NCBI RefSeq assembly: GCF_009834535.1
Contig: NC_045696.1
Span: 51,462,001 to 51,526,000, forward strand
Reading direction: 5' to 3'
DNA from: Camelus ferus
Lineage: Eukaryota
Length of the DNA stretch: 64,000 bases
The first letter of the stretch is position 1. Each line of letters opens with the position of its first letter. Made by a program: the position numbers and the translations under genes. Shown one piece after another: positions 5,562 to 63,244 of this stretch. The notes beneath the pieces were generated by a model, which was given only the letters and a program-made list of their open reading frames with translations, ran no database searches and was not told the origin of the DNA.

Positions 5562-5682
5562 GGAGGAGGGTATAGCTCAAGTGGTAAAGCGCATGCTTAG
5601 CATGCACGAGGTCCTGGGTTCAATCCCCCATACCTCCTCCAAACATAAAGAAATGAATAAACCTAATACCTCAAGAAGAAGA
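5562..5682 (+). mobile_element. tRNA-Ala-derived SINE (camelid vic-1-like)
   Basis: GGGTATAGCTCAAGTGG (A box)...GGTTCAATCCC (B box), A-rich tail; perfect 14-bp TSD AGAAGTAGAAATAG at 5548-5561 and 5683-5696. Confidence 0.92.
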
Positions 5683-11936: not shown

Positions 11937-12080
11937 TTTTTTAAAAATCATTTTTATTTATTTATTTTTTGAGGGGGAGAGGTAATTAGGTTTATTCATT
12001 TTAATGGAGGTGCTGGGGATTGAACCCAGGACCTTGTGCATGCCAAGCGGGCGCTCTACCACTGAGCTACACTCTCCCTA
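11937..12080 (-). mobile_element. tRNA-derived SINE (vic-1-like)
   Basis: ggggattgaacccaggaccttgtgcatg...ctctaccactgagctac with T-rich tail on the left; AAGGAAAT on both flanks as a probable TSD. Confidence 0.9.
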
Positions 12081-16995: not shown

Positions 16996-17145
16996 TTTTT
17001 TTTTTTTTTTTCTTTTTTTGGTGGGGGTGGGTGGAGGTAATTAGGTTTATGTATTTATTTATTTTTAGAGGCGGTATTGGGGATTGGACCCAGGACTCTG
17101 TGCATGCTAAGCATGTGCTCTACCACTTGAGCTATACCCTTCCCC
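16996..17145 (-). mobile_element. tRNA-derived SINE (vic-1-like)
   Basis: ggggattggacccaggac...gcatgctaagcatgtgctctaccacttgagctataccc, poly-T tail, flanks TGTTCTTTTT / TGCTCTTTTT. Confidence 0.92.
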
Positions 17146-19944: not shown

Positions 19945-20830
19945 TAAAAAAGAATTGTGGTAAAATGTGCATAACATAAAGTTTGCCATTTTAATCATTT
20001 TTAAGTGTATGATTCAATGCCATTAATTACACTCACAATGTTACGCAGCCATCACTACTGTGTATTTCCTTTCATCATCTCAAACAGAAACTCTGTATTC
20101 ATTAAGCAATACCTCCTCATTCCTCCCTTTTCCCAGTCCCTGGTAACTTCTAATGTACTCTCTGTCACAATGGTTTTACCTATTCTAGATATTTCATGTA
20201 AGTGGAATCATACAACATTTGTCCTTTTGTATCTGGCTCACTTCACTTAAAATAATATTTTCAGGGTTCATCTATGTTGTAGCATGTTTCAGAACTTCAT
20301 TCCTTTTAATGGCTGTATAATATTCCATTGTATGTGTATACCACAATTTGCTTATCCTTTCAGCTGTTGATAGACACTTATGTTGTTTCTGCCTTTGGCT
20401 GTTGTGAATAATACTGTTATGAACATTGACATACAAATATTTGTTTCAGTTCCTGTTTCAATTCTTTGGGTTTATACCTAGGAGTAGAATTGCTGGGTCA
20501 TATGGTAATTCTATGTTTAACGTTTTGAGGAACAAACTCTTTTCCACAGCAGCTATACCATTCATATGCCATCAGCAATGTATGAAGGTTCCAATTTCTT
20601 CACATCTTTATCAGTACTTGTTATTTCTTTTTTCAAAAATAGTAGCAGGGGAGAGGGGGAGGGTATAGTGCAGTGGTAAAGTGCATGCTTAGTGTGCACG
20701 AGGTCCTGGGTTCAATCCTGAGTACCTCCATTAAGAAAATAAATAAATAAAGGAAAATAAATAAAAACACAGTTCCCCTCCCCCCGCCCCAATAATAGGC
20801 ATCTTAGTAGATATGAAATGGTATCTCATT
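19945..20830 (-). mobile_element. L1MB-type 3' UTR, interrupted by a SINE
   Basis: ttgtggtaaaat...ataacataaa...cagtccctggtaac...tatacctaggagtagaattgctgggtcatatggtaattctatg...atgaaatggtatctcatt. Confidence 0.9.
20648..20790 (+). mobile_element. tRNA-derived SINE (vic-1-like)
   Basis: gggagggtatagtgcagtggtaaagtgcatgcttag...gtcctgggttcaatcc followed by (AAAT)n tail. Confidence 0.9.
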
Positions 20831-22795: not shown

Positions 22796-24788
22796 AGAGA
22801 ACTGCTTTCAGATAGTTCTGTTTTGGTCACCTATGGGAAAGGCTAGACTGGCAGCAGGGACTGTGTCATCTCTTTTGGTTGCCATGGTCATCCTGGTAGC
22901 AGGCTGCATGTGAGCCCCTTGGATAAAGCTGCCAGCTTATGTCACTAAACAGAAGCAGTGTCTCTGTGACAACAGCTCCCTTCTGCATTCACTAGGCAAT
23001 GTGACATTTAAGCAGCTTTGAGACCTCGCCTGAGGCTTTTGTTGGTTTGCCCATAACATACCCCTGGAATCAAGTTATTTTGTTGAGACAAAATGAAACA
23101 GCAGCCCCATCCCCTTCTCCCTCTGGGGAGAGTGGGTTATAAGCTCATAATCTACTCTGGGGTTCCCTCTTAAGGGACCGATTCCCCTGCACACAGGGCT
23201 GGGAAGACTGAGTCATGCTCTAAAACCCATGAGCCAACATCATTGTTTTCAATGGCACCCATCACTACTCCCATTTATTTAGTGGTGACGCTGTGGTGAT
23301 TCTGTCTAGGTGACCTGCCTATGGAGGCCACTTTCTTTTGAGGAGGGAAATAGGTTTGGGAAATTGAACTCTACCCAGAAGGTGGCAGGTAACTGAGTGG
23401 ACTCAGACTTTCTAAGGAGAAAGACCCTGCAGCCCAGTCCTGTGTCCCATACCTGAGCCCCATTTCTAGCCCAGGAAGCTCTCTCAGGGGGTGGGGTCAG
23501 CCAGGATGGCCCCCCTCCCACCTCCACAACTGTTCTTGCAAGTTCTTCGTCTGCTGTCTTCTCACACACAGCTTGAGTGAGGCCAGTTTGTACTTGGAGA
23601 AAGATCCAGCTCATGATTTTCCCATCCTCGGCTGAGACCACTCTCCGCCCTCATTAGGGAAGGTGCTGGGAGAGGCTGCAGTGGAGCACATTGCCCAGCC
23701 CAGCTGGAGGCAGCAGCCGGAGGGAGGGATCCATTTCTCTGGAAAGTGTCCCCGATGTGCTCTTCTTGGCCGTGCCAGTGAAGAGCAGGGATGGGGACCA
23801 GTTCATCTGCACATTCCTGGTCATGAAAGAGAGAATGGATCTAGATTATAACTGGTTTTCATTTGTGATTGCTTATCTTTGCTTCCAACTGGAAAGCTAG
23901 AGTGGGGTTGGCACTCAGCCATGGCCGCAGGGACTCTCAGCCTTTTCATAAATGCATGGAGAAATGGGGTATCACCATGGACAGGGGGCCACGGGTCAGG
24001 TGGGGCCCAAGGACCTTATGATTTAAGAAAAAGGTTCCAGATTCTTCTTATTTCCTTGATAACTGATAAGTCAATTTTCCCAGTTACTTTTCTATTACCC
24101 CCATCTTATTCAAAACTGCACAGATTCAAATAACCCCACTTCATCTATACAAAACACATAAAAAGAAAAGACAGACTATCAAGATTCTGCTTGATTAACG
24201 TCTTGGGAGATAGCTCACATGAGTCTTCAGGGAGGAAAATAAATGGCTCTGAGCCTGGGCTGTGTTCCTAAGGCCGACCTTGTCACTGCCTACGCGGGGA
24301 AGGCGACGGAGGGGATGAAAGCTCTGGCCCCAGCGTGATTACAGTTGTACCCTTTACAGGACACGGCCGTGTTTCTGGCATTCAATTATGTTTGCTGTGC
24401 ATGCGTGCATACACTCACACACTCGCGCACAGGGCTGGAACTGAAATCATCTCAAGTGAGAATTCTTGTGATGCATTTAAGGGGCCTTGCGTTTGACAGG
24501 TTGCTACCTAGTTATGGACTAAAATCTCACCAGGCACCCCCATAGCTTATCGCCTGTCATTTCAAAACAAAGACATCCTGCTTCCCCTTTCTGTGTCACA
24601 TCTCATCGGCTCATTCTCAGCAGAATCTTACTTTCATTAGGAGCTCGGTGCCACCTCCCTGACTTTCATCAGATGAGAACTTGAAAAAGAAAAAGAAACC
24701 CCCCCCCAAAAAAAAAACCCATTCCATGTTTTGACTTGGATTCTAGGTGTTATTCTCTCAGTCCAGCTTGAAAGAAAAAAAGCCCACC

Positions 24789-24802
24789 CCACGAGGGGGC
24801 AG
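24789..24802 (+). promoter_or_regulatory. Candidate CTCF site
   Basis: CCACGAGGGGGCAG closely matches the CTCF core consensus, within non-repetitive sequence. Motif match only. Confidence 0.35.
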
Positions 24803-26394
24803 GCTGCTTTCCTGTCTTCTGCCACCACACAGCCTCTGAAGTGTGTGAAGAAGAGAGGAAGAGACAATTAACACTCAGCCCCAATCTGCATTTCCTTTTT
24901 AGCTGCCATTTACACGCTGCTCAGGTTTTGAAAACCAGCATTTCATGCTACTCCCCAGAGAGCCAGCACCAGCTTTAGCAGGATCCATCTGCACAGCAGT
25001 CACAGTGCTGAAATCTTCAGCCAACCCAGAATTCATCTATTTATTTTTTATTTTTTGAAAAAATGAGGGAGAGAGGGAGGGTGAGCTGCGTGAGCCAGCG
25101 AGCTGGGTGAAAAGAACAGATTAGAATCTAGTCACATTTAACACATACACTTGACCAGTCCCTGCGCTGGTCTAGGCAGGCGTGAGTCCGTGGAGTTTTC
25201 CTTTGATCACCTTCTAGATTAGTGTGAGCGGCAGATGAATGAGCGAGGGCCCTGTGACAACAGGGGACGGCAGGCCGCGGCAGGAAGGACACACTGTCTG
25301 AGCCCCTGCACCGCTCATCAGCCTGCGTGTCAGCCGGCTCTCGGCTCTCACTGATGGGAGGGAGTGGAGAGAAACGCCGTCCTGGGAAGTCGCTGCTGGT
25401 GTGGGACGAGTTACAGGATGCTTCTGGAGGAGGGAGATGTGTATCATCAACTCCTCAGGTCGGGCCAACTTGCTTTATTTCCTCCAGCCCGTAAAGGGTT
25501 GAGAAGTGAAGCATCATAGCTTTGATAACCTTTGTTATTTTATCATTATTATTTTTTAAACTGAATTCAACACCACAGGAGGTCACAGAGTCAATGGTCA
25601 CAGCTGGCTTTTAAAAAGGGGTTGAGTCATTTTGTGATTGGTAAAACTGAGACTCAGCCTGAGATGGGGGTAATCAAATTTCCTGCTTCAAGGCATCAGT
25701 TGATCACAACAGGGGTCAGAAAGAAGTGTTTTTCTCATACAAGTCCTGGCACAAATATCTAGGTGAAGCAAAGCAAAGCAAAGCAAAAAAAAAAAAAAAA
25801 AAAAAAAAAGCCAACTTTTTTTTTTTTTGAGAGAACAGCAGAGCTGAAAAGCCCAATGAGTGCTCTAATTCCATCTAGCTCTGCTCAGATGGCAGTTGTG
25901 ATTATAGTGTTACAGACACATTTCCCAACTAAGCAGGGCAAGATGGTACTCTCTGCTTGGGCCCTGATTTCCCCATGGATGGGCACAGGTGTGCTCAGAT
26001 GGGGGAAATACTTCAGGGCAGGAGTAGGATGTAGGGTGAGCACATGTCAGTTGAAATAGAAATTGGTGAGTTAAAAAGAAAAAGATTCACAGTAGCCCAG
26101 CGTGCGCCATGGGCGCCGTGACAGATCAGGCCAAGCCACGTGCTCTCGGGAGACGAGGGTGTCTGCGGCTCTCGCAGCAGCACAGATGTGTAAGTCGGCC
26201 TGCTCAGCCCACCAGAGGTGGCAAAAATAAGGCTATGATAAACAGCTTTTGTTTTTCTGGCTGTGTCCTTACTAGGTGGGACCTCCAATCCTTCAAACTC
26301 TCAAAATAGTCTTTGGAGTCGCCCGTGACAAGGATGTCCCACTTCTGCTGTTCTGAATAATGCCACCAGAGTCAGACTGCGTGGGTTCAAGTCC

Positions 26395-28440
26395 CAAATT
26401 CATTCAGTCAAAGTACATTTAAAAGGAGGACCCGCTATGAATGGGATGCTATCTGCAGGCTGAGAAACAGCAGTTCAGGTCCTCAGGTAATGCAGGCTCC
26501 TGTGAAGGAAGACACATGTAAATAAATAAATGACTGAGTCCATCATATTCCAGACAGAGATCAGTGCTAGGGAGAAATGTGCCCTGGGGGGTGGTTGGGG
26601 AGAATGATGCTAGATCAACTAGGCAGTGAGGGGCTTACTTCTGAGGTGAGTTTTCAGTACAGACTGAAAGGAACAAACCATCTAGGGGACAGAATCCTGC
26701 AGGAGAGGGCAGCAGGCATGAGGCCGGGGAGCGGGGGCAGGGCGTGCTCAGTGCATCCCAGGAAGGGTGAGGAGGCCAGCTGACTACACAAGTCTAGCTG
26801 TCAAAGGGGAGGTGGCGGCTGGACTTTTCCCCCGGGGATGATTGCAGCTAGAGAAGGGAAAGGACCTGAAGGCTGAAACCCTGGGAGATTCCTATATCTA
26901 AATGTTGAGGGAGACGAGGAGGAACAAACAAAGGAGGCTGAGCTGGCCAGCTGGTGAGAGAGCTGTGTTCTGGGAGGGAAGGGAAGGAAGCATTTTAAGA
27001 AGGAAGATGTGAGCCCCTGAGTCAAACGCTACTGGAAGTTCAAGTTAGGATGAGAATTTGCCAGTGCATTTAGCAATGGGTGGCCACTGGTGGCCTTGAC
27101 AAGAGCTGTTTTAGTAGAATGAAGGGAACAAAACTCTACTTGACAGAAAAGAATTGGAGAGAGTGAAGACAAGCATTTTGAGGAGTTTTGTCATGAAGGG
27201 GAACAGAAATGGAGTAGTAGTTTGATTTAGATGTGAGATCAAAGGAAGTTTTTTGCTTGTTTGTGTTTTTGATCAGAGAAATAACATCATATTTGTAAAC
27301 GGGTTCAGTAGAGAAGGAAAAAGGCGCAGAAGCAATGTTGTAGGGTGGGCACGAAGGGGAAGGGGCACAGTGCAAAGCGGAGGGGTTGGCTTTAGGCAGA
27401 AGACGGACAGTCCATCACAGCAACACGTGGGAAGGTAAAGTACGTGGACACAAGTGCAGAAGAAATGTAGATGTGAAGGTAGAAACTTGTGTAAGTCCTT
27501 TCTCTGATTGATTCAGTTTTCTCAGGGAAGTGAAGTTATCTGCAAAGGTAATTCCCAAGGAGGAGGAGAGGGTGTTGGAGGTTGGAGGAGAGAGAGAACA
27601 GGTGCAGTGGTTCCCGGTGGACTGGGGAAATACAGTGACTGACAGGTGGCACTGGGGACCCACGTGGGGCTTGTGATAACGACTGAAGTGAGACCAGTCA
27701 TCAAGGTTGTTTCCTTCGGTGCCGTTTAACCGCACAAGTACAGGCATGGAGAAAGGAGAGAGTCGGCTTGAACGAGGCCGAGGGTTTTGCCAGCTGAGTA
27801 CATGAAGGGAGAGCCGGCTGAGGCTGTTGAAGGTACATGCAGGGAGTAACACAACGATGGAATCTAGGCTAGGAAAGAGGGTGAAGGGGAGGGGAGGGGT
27901 GAGAGGCTAGTCACAAGGTGCCAGGAACCGTGTCTTGTCCGTCCTGGTGTGGTCCAAGAATTGTTGGAGCTGGGAGCCCAGAAAAGATGAGCTGGCAAGA
28001 GAGGAGGCAGCTGTCCCAGAGGGAGGTGTTGGAACAGAGTGCAGCTGCTTTGCAGTTGGTGATGTCTAGGCGGCGGCCTGAACACGGGCTGGCTGGCCGA
28101 GGTGGGTAGCCGTGAAGTCGCTGGAGCAGAGGCGCTGAAAGAGTGCGGGAATGGCGCTTGGGGAGGAGCATCTCCCTGCCAGGCGGCTACCCCTCGAGGC
28201 CCCCTTCCTGTTGTGGTTTACATGGGTGGTGCCTTCTGGAGCCCAACTCCCTGAAGTTTACTTGGATGTTGAAAGCACCAAAAATTATGGTAGAAGTAGC
28301 TTTGGAAATAGTCCAACTAATTAAAATCTTCAAGGAATGTGTGGGAGGGAGGCAGCGGTCAGTAATCAGGAGGGGAGAGGGCCAGTAAGGAGGAAGCCCA
28401 GCTCACCCCCTGCTTGGGGACTCTGGAGGAATGGGAGGGA
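26395..28440 (-). mobile_element. Long L2 LINE remnant
   Basis: L2 3' end (attcattcagtc...) then typical antisense L2 text (catttagcaatgg...ccttgacaagagctgttttagtagaatg...gttttctcagggaagt). Confidence 0.7.
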
Positions 28441-30600: not shown

Positions 30601-31178
30601 TGAGACAGGAGGGAAGGGAGCAGGGACAACCATTAAAAGAATGACACAGCAGTGAGCACCACGATGGCAGAAGACTCAACCCCCAGTAGACCTTGAGCTT
30701 CATTATATGCTCATTGTAATACTTTAGCATGGTGAATGGCACTCCCGTGGGTGCCATGACAGTTCTGAGGTTAACCATAAAAGGTCATAAAGTGGGTGGT
30801 GGCCCAGTACCTGGGAATCCCAGCCCCTTCCCCAAAGTCATTGGTATAATCTTCCCACTTGTTAACATATGAAGTTACCGAGCCCGTAAAAAGGAGCAAC
30901 CCCTCACCTCGTGTCCACTCTCCCTTCTGAGTAAAATGGCCTGCATCCTGCCTATGGAACGTGTATCTCCTAGGCCCCTCTGTTGCTCTCTCTTGTCCTG
31001 GGAGATGACCCACACTCTGTCTGTGGACTGTGCATCTCTCTTAATAAATCTACCTTCACCCTACTATGGCTGGCTCTAGAATTCTTTCTTGCACGAAGCT
31101 AAGGACCCTCACTTGATGGGGCTCGTCCCAGGGACTCGGACACGGCCATCCTCTTGTGCCCCATTTTTTCCTTCACCA
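30601..31178 (+). mobile_element. ERV1 solo LTR, MER41-like
   Basis: TG...CA termini, near-TSD GGAT/GAAT, AATAAA near 31043, GGTGCCATGACAGTT core, gaattctttcttgcacgaag U5 motif. Confidence 0.8.
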
Positions 31179-36333: not shown

Positions 36334-36806
36334 CTGTATTGGTGGATTCAGCTTCATAGAACAGAAACGTTCTAGTTGAATTCACGATTTAAGCAGAAAT
36401 ATTTCTAGATCTTAACATTAGTAGATATTTAGTGACTACAAAATTACTTGTGGGCTGGAAGACCTGGCTTCAGGATGAGCTTCCAGAAATCTTTCCAGCC
36501 CCAGAGACATCTACTTCTCAGCTCTAATCAGAGCAGTTGCGTTTCTGCTGCAGGAGGTTGCTGAATTACGAAGCTGCTGACTCCAGAACACGCTGCCTCT
36601 GCCTCAGTCCACTGCCAGCAAATTGTTGGCTGCTCTCTCTCCCTCCTTTCAGCTTTATCCAGGGAAAATTGAGTCTTTCTGGAAACCTAGCTGCAAGGAA
36701 ATCTGGGAAATGTAGTTTTTGGCTTTCTGGACTCTTCAGCATAGGAAGGCACACTAGGAGGAGGTTAGAATAAATTTGGAGCAAGCTAATTACAGTATCC
36801 ACTACA
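36334..36806 (-). mobile_element. Old ERVL/MaLR LTR (LTR33/MLT1J-like)
   Basis: TGTATT...CTACA termini; ctagctgcaaggaaatctgggaaatgtagtttt motif. Confidence 0.6.
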
Positions 36807-41090: not shown

Positions 41091-41784
41091 AGAGGTACAC
41101 ATTCACAATCCTTCACTGAAAAGTAGTTAACAAGCCAAAAGTCCCCTCTAAAGAGTTACATCTCAAAAGCTCTACATTGCATTAGCTTTAAGAAAACACC
41201 CTTTCCCCTGGAAGCTGAATGAACTGCTCCAAACTTGGAATTTAAATATGAGCATTTCTCCTTTATTTTTCCAATTAGCCACTTGTTCACACGTCCCACG
41301 TGCCTCATTATTATGAAGCTCAGCATTCTTCTGACAGTTCTTATGCCCCCTGGATTAAACTGACAAAGAACATTGAGTACTTACTTCCAAGTGGGTTAGT
41401 CCTCTTCTAATGCCAAATGTAGCGACAAACGAAATGCAGTTTATACCACCCAGTGCAGTTACTTTTTCATTGCCATACGTATTGCTGTTGAATTTTGCCT
41501 TGAAAAATTCCATGGATATTTGTCCCACACAAGGACAAACTTGGAATTTAAATATGGACATTTCCTCTCATTTTTCTAGTTAGCCCCTTGACTGCTCACA
41601 TGTCTCAAAGGCATTATCATGAAGCTCAACCTCTCCTCCTGAGAACCCTGCTGCCCTTTAAATTGACTTGTCTAAGAACAGTGGGCACTTACTCCTAAGT
41701 CTGCTTAGTCTGCACCTGTGTGACCAGAGGAGGCTGTTCAGTGACTCTCACAGAAAGGAGACCTCTAGATGGTATTTTCCCCTC

Positions 41785-43084: not shown

Positions 43085-43620
43085 TTTTATTAAAATATTC
43101 AAAACATTTATTGCAAAAAGAATACACGCTCTTTGTTTTTTAAAACTGCAAACAATATAGTATATATAAAGTATACTATATATAGTAAAAACTGAAAGTT
43201 CCCTACAACCCTGATCCATCTCATTCCTCACGGATAGTCACTGTTAACAGTGTCAAGGCCATCTTTCCAGATCTAGACTTATTTCCTGCAACTTGCTCTT
43301 TTACCTAACACTGGACCTGGGAGATGTTTTAACAGTGCAATATACAGAGATACCTTACTGTTCCACAGTATTTCATAGAACAGATGTACCGTAACTTCCC
43401 TACTGATGGACATTTAGATTGTTTTCAACATAAAACATTTTCAAGATATTCAAAAGAAAACAATATAAAACCTTTGTTTCATATATAAAAACAAAATCAC
43501 AGTGATATTTTTTTGTCCACATATCTGTACATTTGTGAGAACAGTTCTCTAGGCTCAATTTCTAGAAATTGAATTAAATGTCAAAGGGTCTGCATTTTTA
43601 CATTTTAATACACTGTATGC
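43085..43620 (-). mobile_element. L1ME-type fragment
   Basis: cactgttaacag...ccctactgatggacatttagattgtttt...tcaaagggtctgcatttt. Confidence 0.65.
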
Positions 43621-44290: not shown

Positions 44291-44714
44291 TCCAGCTCCT
44301 GGAACCAAAACTCTCAGTTCCGAGTTGGCAAGGACTGAAGTCCTGGGCAGGGACAGGATACAACAGCAGCTCAAGACTTAGCTACTATATTGCTATATAT
44401 GAGACAAATAAAGGGTCCAGGCCCTTTTACCTTTCAGATATCCTCAAAATAAAGAACCAAATTCAAATCTTCATAGGCTTGGCTTTCAAAAAGTCTGAAA
44501 GAAGCTATGTATACATTTTTCTTTTCTCTTCTACAGCACCCTCCTCCTCGTTCTTTTCCAAATATTCCTGAGATGGTTCAGTGATATAACCTATGGAGAG
44601 AGCTGTGGCAGAAGTTCTGTTCTAAATGCACGATAACCAAGAGGCTTCTCTCCTGAATGAATTCTCAGATGCCAAGTAAAGATAGGCCCTGCGGTTTTCC
44701 TTAGCAGTTATAAT

Positions 44715-44960
44715 CGAAAGGTCTTTTCCCAGTAGAAGCGCTCTGATGTTGACTGAGGTAGGCCCACCTGCAGAAGGTCTTCCCACGTGTCTTACATTCG
44801 GAGAGTTTCTCTCCAGCATGAGATCTCTGATGCTGAGTGAGGACAACAAGGCTTTTGTGTAGTCACTGCATTCAGAGCGCTTCTCTATTGCAGGGCTCAA
44901 ATGTCAAGGGAAAGAAAAGCTTTCACAAGAGGCTCTTCCACATTACTTGCACTCAAAGGT
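44715..44960 (-). pseudogene. Two to three decayed C2H2 finger relics after the frameshifted end of the ZNF ORF
   Basis: Shifted frames read [16 protein letters not shown]..., EKRSECSDYTKA..., LTQHQRSHAGEKLSECKTRGKTFCRWAYLSQHQSASTGKRPF. Confidence 0.8.
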
Positions 44961-45913
44961 TTTTTCTCTGCATGGGCCTTAGTATGCCGGACAAACACAG
45001 AGCGGTGGGCAAAGGCCTTTCCACAATCCCTGCACTCATAGGGCTTCTCTCCAGTGTGACTCCGTTTGTGTCGAGTGAGGGAATAGCCATAGTAAAAACT
45101 TTTACCACAATCTTTACACTTATAGGGCTTTTGTGTGGCATGGGTCTGGCCATGTCGGAAAAAAACAGAGTAGTAGGTGAAGGTCTTTCCACATTCTCTG
45201 CACTTGTAGGGCTTCTCCCCAGTGTGAGTCTTCATGTGTCGAGTTAAGGAAGAGTTGTAGTGAAAGGCTTTCCCACATTCTTCACAACCAAAGGGTTTTT
45301 CTCCTGTGTGGGTCATAATATGCTGGACGAAAACGGAGTGGTAGTTGAAGGTCTTTCCACATTCACTGCACTTGTAGGGCTTCTGGCCAGTGTGAATCCG
45401 CTGGTGGTACATGAGGTGTGACCTCCGGCTGAAGGCCTTCCCACACTCTGCACACTTGTAGGGCTTCTCCCCAGTGTGAATCCTCACGTGCCGGACAAAG
45501 TCCACCTTTTCACGAAAGGCTTTCCCACACTCCTGGCAACCATAAGGCTTCACTCCAGTGTGAATCCGCTGATGCCGAACGAGGCGGCAATTCTTGTTAA
45601 ACAGTTTCCCGCATTCTTTGCATTCGTAGAGGGTCTTCCCTGCATGAACCAAGGTGTCTTTACTTGGTTCCTGTGAATCACATTCACGGAGAGCATCTGC
45701 AGAGTCTCGCTTTTGTGAAACCCCTGAGCACAGACTATCTTCTGTGCCCAGCCCACTGGGTTCCCAGCTCATTTCCATAAGGAGGCTCTCCTTGTGGGAG
45801 GCTGTAACTGGCTTTAAGTGCCCGTCCTGCATTTCAAACAGCCCTTCCTGATCTCTGGTTTGCCCCAATCTGGAGAGCCTTCTGGCTCCCTGAGTCAGTA
45901 CTCCCTGTAGCAA
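44897..45913 (-). CDS. KRAB-less C2H2 zinc-finger protein, 8 fingers, ZNF599/ZNF543-family-like; first in-frame ATG at 45832
   Basis: Eight CxxC-x12-HxxxH fingers with TGEKP[YF]-type linkers; spacer [10 protein letters not shown]...[11 protein letters not shown] resembles recalled ZNF599/ZNF543 last-exon spacers. Orthology not established. Confidence 0.85.
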
Positions 45914-45939
45914 GGACAGGTGCTTCAGCAGAAGGCCTC

Positions 45940-46320
45940 TCTTCCCCGTCTCTTACCGTGCCTCAGCTGTTAGGTCCACTCTAGTTTGGAAACCGCATGG
46001 CCCAGTGAGGCAAGAAGTCCGCAGGTCTCTCCAGCGTCCCTTCCCAGAACAGGGTCTCTGGGCCTGGTCCGGCTGCCGCCCTCCACACGTCCAACACTGC
46101 TGCCCCGGATGCGGCTGCAACCAGCAAGACAAAGGGCCGCGTGGTACCGGCTTCCGCGTGGCACCGGCTTCCGCGTGGCACCGGCTTCCGCGGGGCACCG
46201 GCTTCCGCATGCGCAGAGCGCGCCTCTGACTACAGATACCAAGGAGCCCCGCGCTCAGCCGCCGCCAGGACTACAAATCCCAGAGGCCCCAGTATACTCT
46301 TTTACTTTCGGAAATTGAAT
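45940..46320 (-). promoter_or_regulatory. CpG-island promoter and putative first exon of the ZNF gene
   Basis: Densest CpG cluster in the window; NRF1-like GCATGCGCA 46207-46215; ZNF143/THAP11-type ACTACAAATCCCAGAGGCC 46270-46288 and a weaker copy 46229-46249; four CGGAAG ETS cores; donor CACG|GTAAGA at 45956. Confidence 0.85.
46141..46208. repeat. 17-bp tandem repeat, 4 copies (GTGGCACCGGCTTCCGC)
   Basis: Units 46141-57, 46158-74, 46175-91, 46192-208; at most one mismatch each. Confidence 0.97.
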
Positions 46321-48667
46321 TGTCAGTTACTCTAGAAGGAAGTTCACAAGTGTGGTTGGAAGTTCAACCCAGTTTGTCAGGGAAAACCTCCAAACATGCA
46401 AGCAAACGTGTACGCGAGGAATTTGGTCCTGGAGGGTGTGGGGAGCGACAGGGTCTTATTTACAGCTTTATTTTTTCCGCTGACCCACATCAAGCCGTCT
46501 CCAGGGGCTGGGTGTTAAAGTCAGCTCGGCTGGAAATTCAGGATCTCTTTTCCGTCGCTGATGGTTCTGTCATTAGTAAAACCACATTGAGGTTTGGCCT
46601 CTCCTCTGAAAGGTCTTTCCAAAGAGAAGCTTTCCCACACCTGTCCCAGGAGATGTGTACCAGAAGGTTCACAGTAGCAGACACCTGGAGGGAGCCCAGA
46701 GAAGAGGATGAATAAAGGTCTTCTCCACAGGATGGAACATGATTCAGCAACTCAAGAGGGCTCTAGCCCTGCTGCTGCAGTGGTGGAATCCGAAGCATTA
46801 CAATTTACGTTGCAGAATCTTCAAACAGTAGGGGCCCATCAGTGCCAAGTCCCTCTGGAACTGGTGAGGAGGGGAGACCATCATGTAGAGGATGGTGACA
46901 CTGGTTTAGCAGGACCTTGATCCACTGCCCTCCTCTGCCCAAACTCGAGGTGGTTATTAAGGTGAAGAGAGGATCTTGGAACCGGACAAGGAGAGGCTCA
47001 GTGGAAAAAAGAGGCTTGATGGTCATTGACATCAGTGAAGTGCTAGAACCTCTGCCATCTTTACTGTTCCTGGCAGCTGTTTGGACTGTTCTTCTCTGAG
47101 AATCTGACCAGCTCAAGAAGAGAGACCTAAAGATACTGACATTGCAGGTCTCCCAGTGAAATGATCAGGCAGGTTGACTTTCAGCGAACACTTAAACTTT
47201 GTTTCATTTGTCTGTCTCCAGTGCTTGCCAGAACTGACAACGACAATATTGAAGAGGAAGGGTGATAGCAGATGTTCTTTTCCTTTTCCTGATGTAAAAA
47301 AAATTCTTCTAATATTTTACAATTGAGAATGTGTATAGTATGGATTTTGTTGGTATCACCTGTTTGATCACCTTCATAAAATATATAAATATTAGAGAAA
47401 TTAAAGACCTGGGAAAATCCAACAGAGTTTTCTCACCCAAAGGATTTGGTGGAAGTCAGAATACAGGGCAGAGAGCTCAGCTGTGTTTTCCAGACAGTAA
47501 TACTTTCTCTAGGATGGGAGGCGGTAGTAGATGGCCATGACTTAGGTGGCCATGCATGAACTGGTCTGAATAGGTGCTGGACCATCTTGCCCAGACAGGT
47601 GTCCCTGTCAGTCTCAGGATGCTACACATTTGAGACAACATTCTCTCCAACAGTGGTTCTCCAGGTGTGGCCCTTGGTCTCAGTTGTGTCCACTTTCAAG
47701 AGTTCAGGAAAGTCTGATCACTAAACACTGGCATCATAGTCACAATGATGTGGACAATTACAAAATAAGTTGGCTTTGCTTCTTAGAAAAGTGCAATTTT
47801 CTTCTTTAGTGAATTTGTCTCTTAGTATATAGTTTTAATGATATAGAACAGTTTCCTAAATGATTGGTACTTTCAGTCATTTAAGCCACAGTAGCAAGTA
47901 ACCTGAATCTCTCAGCAGGTAGTTGGTATAAGTTAGGTCACATGAATACCTATACTATACTCAGAGTCTGCCATCTGAGAATTCTCAGGAGGGCTTTTCA
48001 TGAGGGCTCATCTGTCAGCCTGGGCTACTGCAGGTGACTTAACCATTGTGAGTGTAGACTGTCACCTGCAATTTTTGGTTCTTGGACACACCTGTGGGTA
48101 GAGTGTCCACCACTGTTCGTCTGCCCCCCTTTAAGCATTATAGTCCAAGCACGAACATAGACTTTTTCTTTAGTATTAAACAAAGCTGTGAGTTTATTAA
48201 AACTTTGTTGAACACTGGGGGTTGCAGAGGGACTTCCACATAGAGAATAACTTACAATAACTGGCCTTTTTCCATGGCTGTTCTTAGACCCCTTGGTTCT
48301 CAGTCTGTGCTCCTCCAGCCTCCGTAGGACCGCTTTTATGTATAGAGCCCATTCTTCCCACTTAAGGAAGAGGCCAGGTTTCCACTGCCACCCAGAAACA
48401 ACTTAAACATGCCTCACTTCCCCAGACCCTAAGCCCAAGTCAAGGTTCAGAGAGAGGAAGAAATTTCCTTCTCAAACCCAATTCAGGCCTGTCTTCCCCA
48501 TTTTTTGTTCCCACCTTTTACCTTTATGGATGACTTGGTGTAGTATCTACTTCCTTTAGCAGAGACTCCTCCTCCATTCACACAGTATTGGCCTTACCTT
48601 GTGTCTCCAATAGTACATCCCTTAGAGTACATAATAGAGCAACATTTCTACAAGATATCATACTTAC

Positions 48668-48830: not shown

Positions 48831-48879
48831 GTTTCAGAAAAAGAGAGAAAGCTCTTTTCATTAAGAAGAGTGAGTGATT

Positions 48880-50175
48880 ATCTTGGGAAAGAATAGTGCT
48901 TTCAACATATGGTGCTGGGACAGGTGGATCCACATGTGAAAGAAAGAATTTGGATCCTTATCTTACCTATATACAAAAATTAATTCAAAATGGGTCATAG
49001 AATCAAAGGTAAGAACTAAAACTATAAAACCTTAGAAGAAAACATAGGAGTTACTTTCTGTCATCTTTGGCTAGGTAATGGTTTCTTAGACATGGTACCA
49101 AAAGCATGAGCAGCAAAAGAAAAAATAAAAATTTTTCATCAAAAATCATCAAAATTAAAAACTTTTCTGTTTCAAAGGATATCACTGATAAAGTAAAAAG
49201 GCAAACCATAGACTAGGAGAAAATATTTGTGAATGGTATATTTGATGAGGGATTTGTAGCCAGAATGTATAAATAACTCTTGCAACTAAATAATCAAAAG
49301 ACAAAAAGCCCAATTTAAATGGGCAAAGGATTTGAATAGTTATTTCTCCATAAAGGATAAACAAATAGCCAATAAACAGCACATGAGAAGATGCACTCAC
49401 ATCATTAAGCATTAGGGAAGTGAAAATCAAAACCACAATGAGAAAACCACTTCACACCTACCAGGATGACTAAAATTAAGAAGACAAGAGCGAGTGTTGG
49501 TGAGCATGTGGAGAAATTGTAAACCTTATACATCACTGGTGGGAATGTAAAGTGGTGAAGACATTTTTGAAAGAGGTCTTGTGTAGTCTTGTAGTTCCTC
49601 AAAAATTTAAATGTAGAGTTACCACAGGACCCAGAAACTTTACTCCTAGGTCTATACCCAAGAGAAATGAAAAAAAATATGTCCGCATAAAAACCTGTAC
49701 ATAAATGTTCATAGCAGCATGATTTATAACAACAAAAAAGTGGAAACAACTCAAATGTCTGTCAATTGATTAATGGATAAGTAAAATATGATATATCCAT
49801 ACAGTGGAATATTATTCAGTCATGAAGAGTGAAGTATTGATAGGCGCTCCAACATGGAAACACTTTGAAAACATCATGCTATGTGAAAGAATTCAGTCAC
49901 AAAAGAACACAGGTTGTCTGATTCTGTCTATATGAATTGTCCAGAATACATGCATCTATAGAGACAGAAAGTAGGGCTAGGGGTGAGAAGAAGGGATGGG
50001 TTGACTGCTAAGGGTTATAGGGCTTCAAAACTTTGGGGGTGAGGAATATGCTCTAAAATTATATTGTGATAGTTGGGCAACTCTCTGAGTATGCACAAAA
50101 CCATTTGAATTCTATATTTTAAATGGGTAAATTTTATGTACATGAACTACATCTCAATAAGACTTAAAAAATAAA
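48880..50175 (+). mobile_element. L1MB-type ORF2 end and 3' UTR
   Basis: ttcaac..atggtgctggga...tagaagaaaacatagg...aaatgttcatagcagcat...atctcaataa. Confidence 0.92.
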
Positions 50176-50425
50176 GAACTATATTCAAGTTTTCAAAGAA
50201 CATTTCATTTCAGGCATATAGATAATAATAAAATGACCACTCATATACTTATCATGCAGCTTAAAGAAAATCCTACAGATGTCATGGAAACCTCTTGTGT
50301 ATTCTGTCTTGATTCAATTAACCTAACACCACCTCTGGAAGCAGCTAGGTTGTTTACTAGAAGTGAACATGATATTTTATCATTTGTTATCATTTCTTAA
50401 GTGTTTTATCCTATTGCTACATTTG

Positions 50426-52139: not shown

Positions 52140-53096
52140 TTTTAAAAATTTGAAGCACAGTTAATTTACAATGTTGTGTTAGTTTCAGGAGTACAGCAAA
52201 GTGATTCAGTTATACATATTTCTTTTCAGATTCTTTTCTATTATGGGTTATTACAAGATAGTGAATATAATTCCCTGTGCTATACAGTAGGTCCTTGTTC
52301 TTCATATTTTATGTAGTAGTGTGTATATGTTAATCCTAAACTTCTAATTTATCTCTCCCCCCATCCCCGCTTTCCCCTTTGGTAACCATAAGTTTGTTTT
52401 CTATGTCTGTGTGAATGAAAAATATTGCCAGCCGTATCAGTAAACTAAAGGATGCTGTGGCCATCAAGTCATCAGCTGCTACACCACCCCCAACAGTGCA
52501 CTCAAGGGAACTCAGGATGGAGACAAGCAGACAGCCCGGCCTCTGCCACCCCCAACGGTGCACCCTGAGGGAACTCAGTATATGAAAGACAGGATGCTGG
52601 AGCTAGATAGCTAGGTGTATATCAAAGGGATGATTTCAGTGAGCCAGACTTTTGCACCTTTCCCATACAAAGGAAAGTGCTAAATTCCTTAACTTGAGAC
52701 ATTAGATTTTTCTTCAATTAACAGTAATCATTTGATGTTCCACCTGGTCTTTGTGGCAAAACTCTTATCTATCCTGGCTCCTCTGGAACACTCTCTTAGA
52801 ACGAGCTGAGAGGCTACCTCCCGGGTTTGAGTCCTCAGAAAGTCCACCATATAAAACATAACTCTCAACTTTTAGGCTGTGCACTTTTTAGTCAACACTG
52901 TTTCTGTTTTGTAAATAAGCTCATTTGTATCATTTTTTAAGATTCCACATATAAGTGATAACATATGATATTTGTCTTTGTCTGACTTACTTCACTTAAT
53001 ATGATCATCTCTAGGTCCATTCATGTTGCTGCAAATGCCATTATTTTGTTCTTTTTTATGGCTGAGTAGTATTCCATTATATATATAACAGTAATC

Positions 53097-53131
<35 letters not shown>

Positions 53132-54041
53132 CCACAACTTCTTTATCCAGTCATCTGTTGATGAACATTTAGGTTGTTTCCATGTCTTGGCTATTGTTAG
53201 AAAATGTCTTAATTTCATTATTTTACATGAAGCTGTCCAGTTTTCCCCGCACCACTTATTGAAGAGACTGTCTTTTCTCCATTGTATATTCTTGCTTCCT
53301 TTGTTGTAGATTAATTGACCATGAGTGTATGGGTTTATTTCTGGGCTTTCTATCCTGTTCCATTGATCTATGTGTCTGTTTTTGTGCCAGTTCCATACTG
53401 TTTTGATTGCTGTAGCTTTGTAGTATGGTCTGAAGTCAGGAGAGAGTTATTCCTCCCACTCTGTTCTTCTCTGTCAATATTGTCTTGGCTATTTGGGGTC
53501 TTTTGTGTTTCCACACAAATTTTAACATTTTTTTTTTGTTCCAGTTCTGTGAAAAATGCCATTGGTAATTTAATAGGGATTGCATTGAATCTGTACATTT
53601 CTTTGGGTAGTATGGTCATTTTAATAATATTGATTTTACCAACCCAAGAACACAGTATATCTTTCCATCTTTTGTGTCATCTTCATCAGTGTCTTATAGT
53701 TGTCAGACTACAAGTACTTTGCTTCCTTAAGTAGATTTATTCCTAGGTATTTAGTTCTTTATTGATATGATGGTAAATGGGATTCTTTCCTTAATCTCAC
53801 TTTCTAATATTTCTTTGTTAGTGCATAGGAATACCACAAATTTCTGTATACTAGTTTTTTATCTAGCTACTTTACTGAATTTATTCATGAGTTCTAGTGG
53901 TTTTCTGGTAGTGTCAGCATTTTGGAAGTCCTAGCCACAGCAGTCAGAGAAGAAAAAGAAATAAAAGGAATCCAAATTGGAAAAGAAGAAGTAAAACTGT
54001 CACTGTTGGCAGATGATATGCTACTACACATCGAATATCCT
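52140..54041 (-). mobile_element. Artiodactyl-type L1, 5'-inverted, internally deleted and interrupted by an LTR
   Basis: 3' UTR 52140-52409 and 52898-53200, ORF2 53200-53915 ([20 protein letters not shown]), then a plus-strand RT piece 53916-54041 ([22 protein letters not shown]). Confidence 0.92.
52410..52897 (+). mobile_element. ERV solo LTR inside the L1 3' UTR
   Basis: TG...CA block interrupting contiguous L1 text; probable TSD CTGT; internal duplication ccacccccaac.gtgca...gggaactcag. Confidence 0.8.
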
Positions 54042-62239: not shown

Positions 62240-63244
62240 CTGTTTAGTGGACAGAGGAACCCCTACATTTGGAAGAGCACCAAAGTGTGAGTCCTTGTCA
62301 CTGGATGTGAAAGAATTCATGCAGCAGAGGCAGAGGGACCAAGTGAACAGCCACTTTATTGCTCAGAAGGGGAAATGGAAAGAGGGTGCTCGAGCACAGA
62401 GAAGGAAAGCAAAATGCTTTTGTGGGGAGAGGAAGTGCTCGAATGAGGAACTGTCAGCCAATATGACCAGCAGAGACAGCTCCAGCCAAGTCGGGCCACG
62501 TGGACCTTTATGGGAGGTGTTTGTCATCATGTCTTCCTTTCAGGTGTGCTGGGGCCCATCAGTCCTTGTATGGGCTTTTCAGCCCTTGTATGGGCTTTTC
62601 CAGTTGTCATGGTAAGCCCCAACTGTCATGGCACCGGTGGGTGTGTCATTTAGCATGCTAATACATTACAATGACTATATAACGAAGCTCAAGGTCCACT
62701 GGAAGTGAAATCCTCCACCATCTTGGACTCCATTGGTTCTAACCAGTTCTTGTTTCTTCTCATTGCAACTGCCTCCTGAGACTTAGATGAGGGTAATTGG
62801 TTTCAAGTCGAAGGAGAGGCAGGGGTAGGATCCTGGAGGACAACAGCCTTGGTATCAAAAAGGAAAGCTGACTTTAATCAAAATGCTGGCAATCTGGTGG
62901 ATCCAGTGATCCCCACAAAAATTGCCTCTGAAGATTCTGCTCAGCCATAAACAAGACTCAGGGCTTGGTGGGGAGGTGCTTAGCTCCTGTAGAAGAACGT
63001 AAAGATTATGTATATTCCTTCAGGAGGAACCAAGATCCTGCCCCAGGGCTGCCCTATTATTTCTTGACTGTTCCTCCCTCGTCTCTGCGTTCCCTCCCTT
63101 CCCTGGTTAGCAACTCTTCGAGCCTGCAATCTGGAACTCTGGGAAGGGCAAGGAAGCTGCATGAAGCCTATTTCCTACAAAAGAGAAATTGGGGACAAAA
63201 AGAATTTGTATCAGGGAGGGCCCATAGAATCCTACTCCCTTTCA
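62240..63244 (-). mobile_element. ERV1 LTR(s): MER41-like segment (about 62240-62850) joined to a second LTR segment (about 62850-63244)
   Basis: 62621-62700 is the reverse complement of the MER41-like core at 30688-30765; minus-strand AATAAA near 62356; ends ...CCCTTTCA. Confidence 0.7.

Follow-up and report, generated by a model that had tools for sequence, protein, structure and literature searches.

The window analysed here (the whole 64,000-nt stretch of Camelus ferus contig NC_045696.1, positions 51,462,001 to 51,526,000) contains a single zinc-finger array, carried on the minus strand by an open frame at 44897-45952 that spans 351 codons from stop to stop and 311 codons when counted from the ATG at 45832. 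The frame adjoins a CpG island with promoter-type motifs on its 5' side and decayed fingers on its 3' side:

43086..43112, minus strand: first downstream AATAAA signals (43112 and 43091), candidate 3' end
44700..44966, minus strand: further finger relics found by sequence comparison, with stops and out of frame
44897..45832, minus strand: ORF of 311 codons; other in-frame ATGs at 45778 (293 codons) and 45772 (291 codons)
44972..45628, minus strand: eight C2H2 fingers, all intact, fingerprint KCRR EVDR RSHY YSVQ YSSR YSVR YYSR HSVR
45631..45929, minus strand: ZNF550/ZNF599-type spacer by homology, with ~22 codons absent across the KRAB-B/finger-exon boundary
~45801..46600, either strand: CpG island over promoter, leader and KRAB relic, the strongest of the window
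46137..46208, minus strand: 17-nt tandem repeat, 4.2 copies, with ETS-like GCGGAAGC in each copy
46205..46214, plus strand: NRF1-like site with one mismatch, the only match in the window; contains the minus-strand ATG 46210
46270..46283, plus strand: THAP11/ZNF143 SBS2-type core ACTACAAATCCCAG, exact match

An earlier note on this DNA had described an eight-finger ORF with all Cys and His ligands in place, decayed fingers next to its 3' end and no neighbouring zinc-finger genes, and our analysis agrees on each point: the eight fingers are intact, the adjacent relics carry stops and are out of frame, and no second finger array was found in any frame of the 64-kb window. Tandem fingers with TGEKP-type linkers within a single exon, a feature of the KRAB-ZNF family, are present, and the final 24 residues of the ORF are a shifted reading of the dead finger 9. 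Apart from the relic described below, no other KRAB was found in the window, and a Pfam scan of 43 other window ORFs of at least 95 codons gave just two weak matches below cut-off and no clear gene; an upstream ORF at 46808-47164 had no PDB match. The ESM Atlas contains the 311-aa protein letter for letter and otherwise returned generic finger clusters when searched with the camel protein, and none of four start variants of the ORF was present in a 15-billion protein collection.

CpG observed/expected reached 1.04 in 46111-46320 compared with 0.22 window-wide. The ratio was 0.47 in the finger exon (44960-45630, 19 sites) and 0.16 in the spacer; retention in the finger exon would fit either arginine-codon selection or low germ-line methylation. 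The ZNF143, NRF1 and ETS motifs that the earlier note had placed in a CpG-island promoter are indeed there, but the four GCGGAAGC copies are not independent, because a single 17-nt tandem repeat produced them. The NRF1-like motif was present in 8 of 100 shuffles. The ACTACAAATCCCAG core, matching the SBS2-type motif defined for THAP11/ZNF143 sites (PMC3627581), has two exact matches in the entire window. The other, at 36703-36716 (minus strand), is outside any CpG island; SBS2 cores of this kind occur in MLT1J elements (PMC3627581).

We compared sequencing runs by the share they hold of the stretch's 209 words, leaving out runs with small shares. Four runs on record as RNA (two studies) hold 0.88, 0.87, 0.74 and 0.49. 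Such counts of words, made on contigs, may stem from DNA; they are compatible with an unspliced transcript over most of the stretch. A share of 0.96-0.97 was reached by 14 of the 24 listed runs, eight of these being possibly source runs; the six not flagged as source come from five studies with two organism labels. With the AATAAA signals at 43112 and 43091 as the candidate 3' end, the transcript would be ~3.1 kb long. Two upstream starts precede the ORF: ATG 45998 opens a 5-codon ORF inside the KRAB-B relic, and ATG 46210 (minus strand) opens 85 codons that end at TAA 45955-45953, just above the ORF, and would hinder translation if transcripts begin above it. We consider the camel ORF probably still protein-coding.

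Elsewhere, the window holds related tRNA-derived SINE copies at 5566-5680 (plus strand), 12005-12076 (minus strand), ~17000-17145 and 20657-20734, which we take to resemble a camelid SINE family, and a solo-LTR-like element at ~30640-31150 with a related inverted piece at 62621-62726 (78% alike over 106 nt). Several 400-nt bins in 24200-27800 show mild CpG enrichment and could be upstream regulatory DNA of a neighbouring gene. A hairpin-capable sequence at 25785-25828 consists of a run of 25 A, a 6-nt gap and 13 T, and a short local duplication (41230-41269 and 41536-41575) is 83% alike at a distance of 306 nt. Old, presumably L1-like fragments lie upstream of the promoter at ~48850-50200 and 52900-54000.

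A decayed KRAB domain in the 5' leader

Immediately above the spacer, the minus strand carries a decayed KRAB-A and KRAB-B (46078-45930) joined without an intron:

45930..46001, minus strand: decayed KRAB-B, directly fused to KRAB-A, with a stop at 45972-45970 and a frameshift near 45953
46002..46078, minus strand: decayed KRAB-A with two frameshifts, from frameshift-aware profile alignment
46079..46127, minus strand: possible weak remnant of the parent's first coding exon and the KRAB-A start; alignment unstable, start codon unrecognisable

The first trace of this relic was a match of the N-termini of the nearest relatives to 46029-45949, just above the ORF. Using a KRAB-A+B profile built from eight proteins and a frameshift-aware alignment over the entire window, we obtained a top score of 68.4 at the relic, with the runner-up at 42.8, and none of 1,000 dinucleotide shuffles attained it (shuffle maximum 39.0). 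The score of KRAB-A alone was reached by 0 of 500 shuffles; KRAB-B alone falls short of significance, with 19 of 500 shuffles attaining its score. Past the last residue of the Pfam KRAB box (the G of SLG), the alignment continues into KRAB-B gap-free and codon-exact, given the phase that we assume for the KRAB-A/KRAB-B intron. A longer profile runs through the KRAB-B end, skips ~22 codons and is then collinear along the spacer up to finger 1. Damage to the relic amounts to three frameshifts, one stop and deletions, and an intact in-frame KRAB-A, the criterion for a repressor, is absent: besides the frameshifts and the stop, 8 of 22 invariant columns are altered.

The earlier note had reported no KRAB-A/B exon, placed a first-exon donor at 45956 and proposed that a deletion or relocation had removed the KRAB exons. 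The relic contradicts the first and last of these statements, with decayed, spliced KRAB remains forming the 5' leader; GTAAGA does stand at 45956-45951, but as the G-K-R codons inside KRAB-B and not at the end of exon 1. The HMM scan for KRAB that the note proposed gave a blank with Pfam (0 of 3 single frames match), because frameshifts, stop and deletions break every single frame, and it took a frameshift-aware profile to find the relic; this blank also explains why the KRAB was overlooked. As a predicted protein, the product is nonetheless what the note supposed, a KRAB-less, DNA-binding-only chain with a dead KRAB and intact fingers.

KRAB-A and KRAB-B are separate exons in the KRAB-ZNF family (PMC2443715, PMC2865497). 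Because their exact exon-exon join lies within a solitary gene, it argues for an mRNA-derived origin, and the locus is, on this sequence evidence, highly likely to be an RNA-derived copy of a KRAB zinc-finger gene. It is the sole clean junction of three, those of exon 1 with KRAB-A and of KRAB-B with the finger exon being hidden by deletions. In agreement with the earlier note, we found no convincing poly-A tail (no T-run of at least 10 between 32564 and the gene) and no convincing target-site duplication in a search for 12-mer repeat pairs, which gave chance-level pairs only; an old copy would be expected to have lost such marks. We therefore regard 'old retrogene' as a likely but not proven description, which the junction and selection tests support and the tail and duplication tests do not.

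Decay of this kind has a partial counterpart in human ZNF252, whose 5' part carries a broken, out-of-frame KRAB and whose finger array is cut by a stop, leaving further fingers in the 3' UTR (PMC2865497). ZNF252 differs in having kept its introns and cluster position and in its recent decay, whereas the camel locus is intronless, solitary and old. KRAB domains have repeatedly been lost through degeneration (PMC2443715; ZNF252 in PMC2865497).

Relatives, parent and promoter

Four protein searches gave no close KRAB-bearing parent, and no protein named ZNF80, among the matches listed. With the full-length protein, 6,668 of 8,000 candidates were significant, generic finger proteins swamping the search, and none of the best 120 exceeded 57% identity; a search of 50% representatives (14,481 matches) was swamped by generic fingers, with no parent among the best 150. 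Spacer-centred searches matched 11 of 158 and 37 of 7,722 candidates, again with no parent among the matches listed. These searches group the spacer with ZNF550, ZNF805 and one dugong KRAB protein (KAM9225355.1), which has the same finger 1-2 pattern and is weakly grouped with the camel protein (82/82). The spacer is 51-53% identical to ZNF550 proteins, the KRAB relic fits the KRAB-A/B of the ZNF599/ZNF550/ZNF805 group, and from finger 1 onwards the ZNF599 fingerprint is collinear with that of the camel, agreeing at 16 of 32 contact positions. Unlike the camel locus, ZNF599, ZNF550, ZNF805 and the dugong gene have an intact, repressing KRAB in separate exons; all are too distant to qualify as the parent. 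ZNF599 binds Tigger6a (PMC10547255 supplement).

The sole close relative found among the matches listed is a frameshifted sister copy, 72% identical over the spacer and finger 1, that groups with the camel protein with support of 99/93. It is without fingers 4-7 and frameshifted past finger 2; two of its six variants end in the camel-type shifted tail and four stop in finger 9. The lack of fingers 4-7 in the sister had raised the idea of a camel expansion, which we rejected because these fingers exist in human ZNF80 and in ZNF599.

A promoter inherited from the parent is recorded for ~3% of expressed retrocopies (PMC4772013), the carrying along of a promoter with an upstream-initiated mRNA has been described for retrogenes (PMC2386082), and CpG islands are rare at retrocopies (PMC10100218). 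We lean towards a CpG-island promoter inherited from the parent transcript; alternatively, the island may have pre-existed at the insertion site. The camel locus resembles promoter-inheriting and orphan retrogenes in being intronless, with a CpG-island promoter and a parent that was not found (PMC2386082, PMC4772013). Orphan retrogenes are described as taking over what the parent did; the camel copy, by contrast, is without a repressor domain and so could not stand in for its parent by the same means.

Likeness to human ZNF80 and signs of selection on the fingers

Compared in register, the camel array shares 26 of 32 contact positions with human ZNF80, with fingers 2, 4, 5, 6 and 7 identical. 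The next-best fingerprints were those of ZNF599 (16 of 32) and of the best of 307 fetched finger proteins (15 of 32), and the EVDR finger occurs in just two places in the multi-species fingerprint table of PMC3971581. The comparison with ZNF80 was made on the published fingerprint table in the supplement of that paper. Human ZNF80, on the minus strand at 3q13.31, is listed with 273 aa, seven fingers, no effector domain and a span of 2.95 kb (PMC2443715 supplement); it lies between DRD3 and TIGIT (PMC8351692). The two loci have in common, besides the fingerprint, the lack of an effector domain, eight finger positions, a solitary location, the minus strand and a size of ~3 kb, and a solitary gene without effector domain, the trait of the ZNF80 group, is what we see in camel. 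They differ in that finger 8 is intact in camel, the camel protein is longer (291-311 compared to 273 aa), and an LTR promoter is reported for human whereas the camel gene adjoins a CpG-island promoter. Neither DRD3 nor TIGIT is within the 64-kb window by motif search and Pfam on 43 ORFs, a DRD3-type receptor motif being absent from it. We conclude that the camel locus is very probably the ortholog of human ZNF80.

ZNF80 is catalogued as primate-only, with no dog or mouse ortholog, in PMC3971581, and its human expression is attributed to an ERV9/LTR12C LTR (PMC7641743, citing Di Cristofano 1995). Our literature search met no account of a ZNF80 retro-origin or of a non-primate ortholog, and four supplement files of PMC6442393 are without a ZNF80 entry; supplementary lists may already class it as a retrogene.

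Several comparisons bear on selection. Invariant positions are changed at 0 of 56 sites in the fingers vs 8 of 22 in the KRAB relic 400 nt away (Fisher p = 1.4e-5), a test in which C and H positions are partly circular; the G, K and F finger positions alone gave 0 of 24. In neutral simulations (1,500 runs per rate, with an assumed 1 indel per 15 substitutions), the frame and all 32 zinc ligands survived in 3-5% of runs at 0.02 changes per site, in 0.07-0.3% at 0.04 and in 0 of 1,500 at 0.06. On the camel side, 9 of 93 spacer sites have changed since the split from the sister, which we estimate by hand as ~0.04-0.06 changes per site. Sharing of at least 26 of 32 fingerprint positions has, again by hand, p ~3e-4 under neutrality, at a neutral camel-human identity of 50%, and this shared human fingerprint is the strongest sign of selection on the camel fingers.

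Other comparisons were less decisive. The camel branch is shorter than that of the frameshifted sister (0.12 vs 0.28), but their derived changes (11 vs 18, p = 0.26) do not differ significantly, nor do the differences in the spacer (26 of 93) and in fingers 1-2 (10 of 50; p = 0.32). Finger 8 is without sign of constraint (three second-position vs two third-position changes), and its linker is also drifting. Pairwise dN/dS of fingers within the array was dropped as a measure, the duplications being old (dS 0.5-0.7 or saturated) and older than the copy. The suggestion that the fingers are under selection thus gains from the invariant-site contrast and the ZNF80 fingerprint and gains nothing significant from the sister rate tests. 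What such tests can show is long-term selection, not present function.

Competing readings and meaning of the locus

We favour the reading that this is a functional KRAB-less retrogene, the camel ortholog of ZNF80, descended from an RNA-copied KRAB-ZNF gene whose repressor decayed while its fingers were kept, with a probability of roughly two in three. An unlikely account, with the same origin and identity, is that the locus in camel has become a processed pseudogene, still transcribed, with its open frame left over from earlier selection. Non-significant rate tests, the drift in finger 8 and its linker, start variants absent from the 15-billion protein collection and a dead sister copy would all fit, as would the one catalogue without a dog or mouse ortholog, implying a gene dispensable in some lineages. 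Against this stand eight of eight intact fingers, where human is listed with seven, the 26 of 32 contacts common to human, the contrast with the KRAB relic and the kept CpG island.

In-place intron loss, by recombination of an original solitary KRAB-ZNF gene with its own cDNA, would keep the native promoter and leave neither tail nor duplication, in line with the full promoter directly upstream and with the failure to find tail, duplication or parent. It is improbable, needing an already dispersed gene and several introns lost together, and simultaneous multi-intron loss via a gene's own cDNA is rare in mammals. The relatives are moreover clustered, as are 89% of KRAB genes (PMC2443715). The earlier note's model, in which the KRAB exons were lost through deletion or relocation of genomic DNA and exon 1 with its donor came to abut the finger exon, could appeal to the GTAAGA 20-30 nt above the spacer homology and to real deletions at two of three junctions; with KRAB-A and KRAB-B present and fused in frame register, a DNA route would require precise intron loss plus two large deletions, and we give it very little credence. 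Least plausible by far is an assembly collapse near 45940: it is not possible to locate the 3% of words that the DNA runs lack, but the six runs not flagged as source agree across five studies, and a collapse would not create a codon-exact KRAB-A/B join.

Under the retrogene reading, a ZNF599/ZNF550-type mRNA would have been reverse-transcribed and inserted before the camel-human split. The promoter, a CpG island with sites of the ZNF143/THAP11, NRF1 and ETS types, would most simply have been carried over on a parent transcript that began further upstream. Both KRAB boxes then decayed into what is now the 5' leader, a decay seen directly, and fingers 9 and beyond died, leaving the relics. Translation would start at a spacer methionine and yield an eight-finger protein of ~290-310 residues that lacks a repressor domain. 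The protein would occupy DNA sites without recruiting TRIM28/KAP1, as a neutral occupant or weak activator at a motif common to human ZNF80; judged from its sequence, it most likely works like other KRAB-derived finger-only proteins, unlike KRAB repressors. Competition with KRAB paralogs, as the earlier note envisaged, is unsupported because no KRAB protein of the same specificity was found: no parent emerged among the matches listed, and ZNF599 shares only 16 of 32 contacts.

A broader and more tentative history, which we put at slightly under even odds, would make ZNF80 as a whole an orphan retrogene that arose no later than the camel-human split from a now lost ZNF599-like repressor, with the parental CpG-island promoter carried along. 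It would have shed its KRAB, kept its DNA-contact residues and read the same motif without a KRAB ever since, and the human ERV9 LTR would be a later addition or replacement.

Retrogenes, inherited promoters and KRAB degeneration are each already known, and the apparent novelty lies in where ZNF80 came from and how old it is; the locus is a case study and adds no new mechanism. If the reading is true, a gene that one multi-species catalogue confines to primates and records without any link to KRAB genes would gain an origin and a far greater age. It would also allow an ancestral CpG-island promoter and a later LTR promoter to be compared on one gene, name a testable binding motif common to camel and human, and document how a repressor can turn into a plain DNA-binding protein, with the intermediate still legible in the leader.
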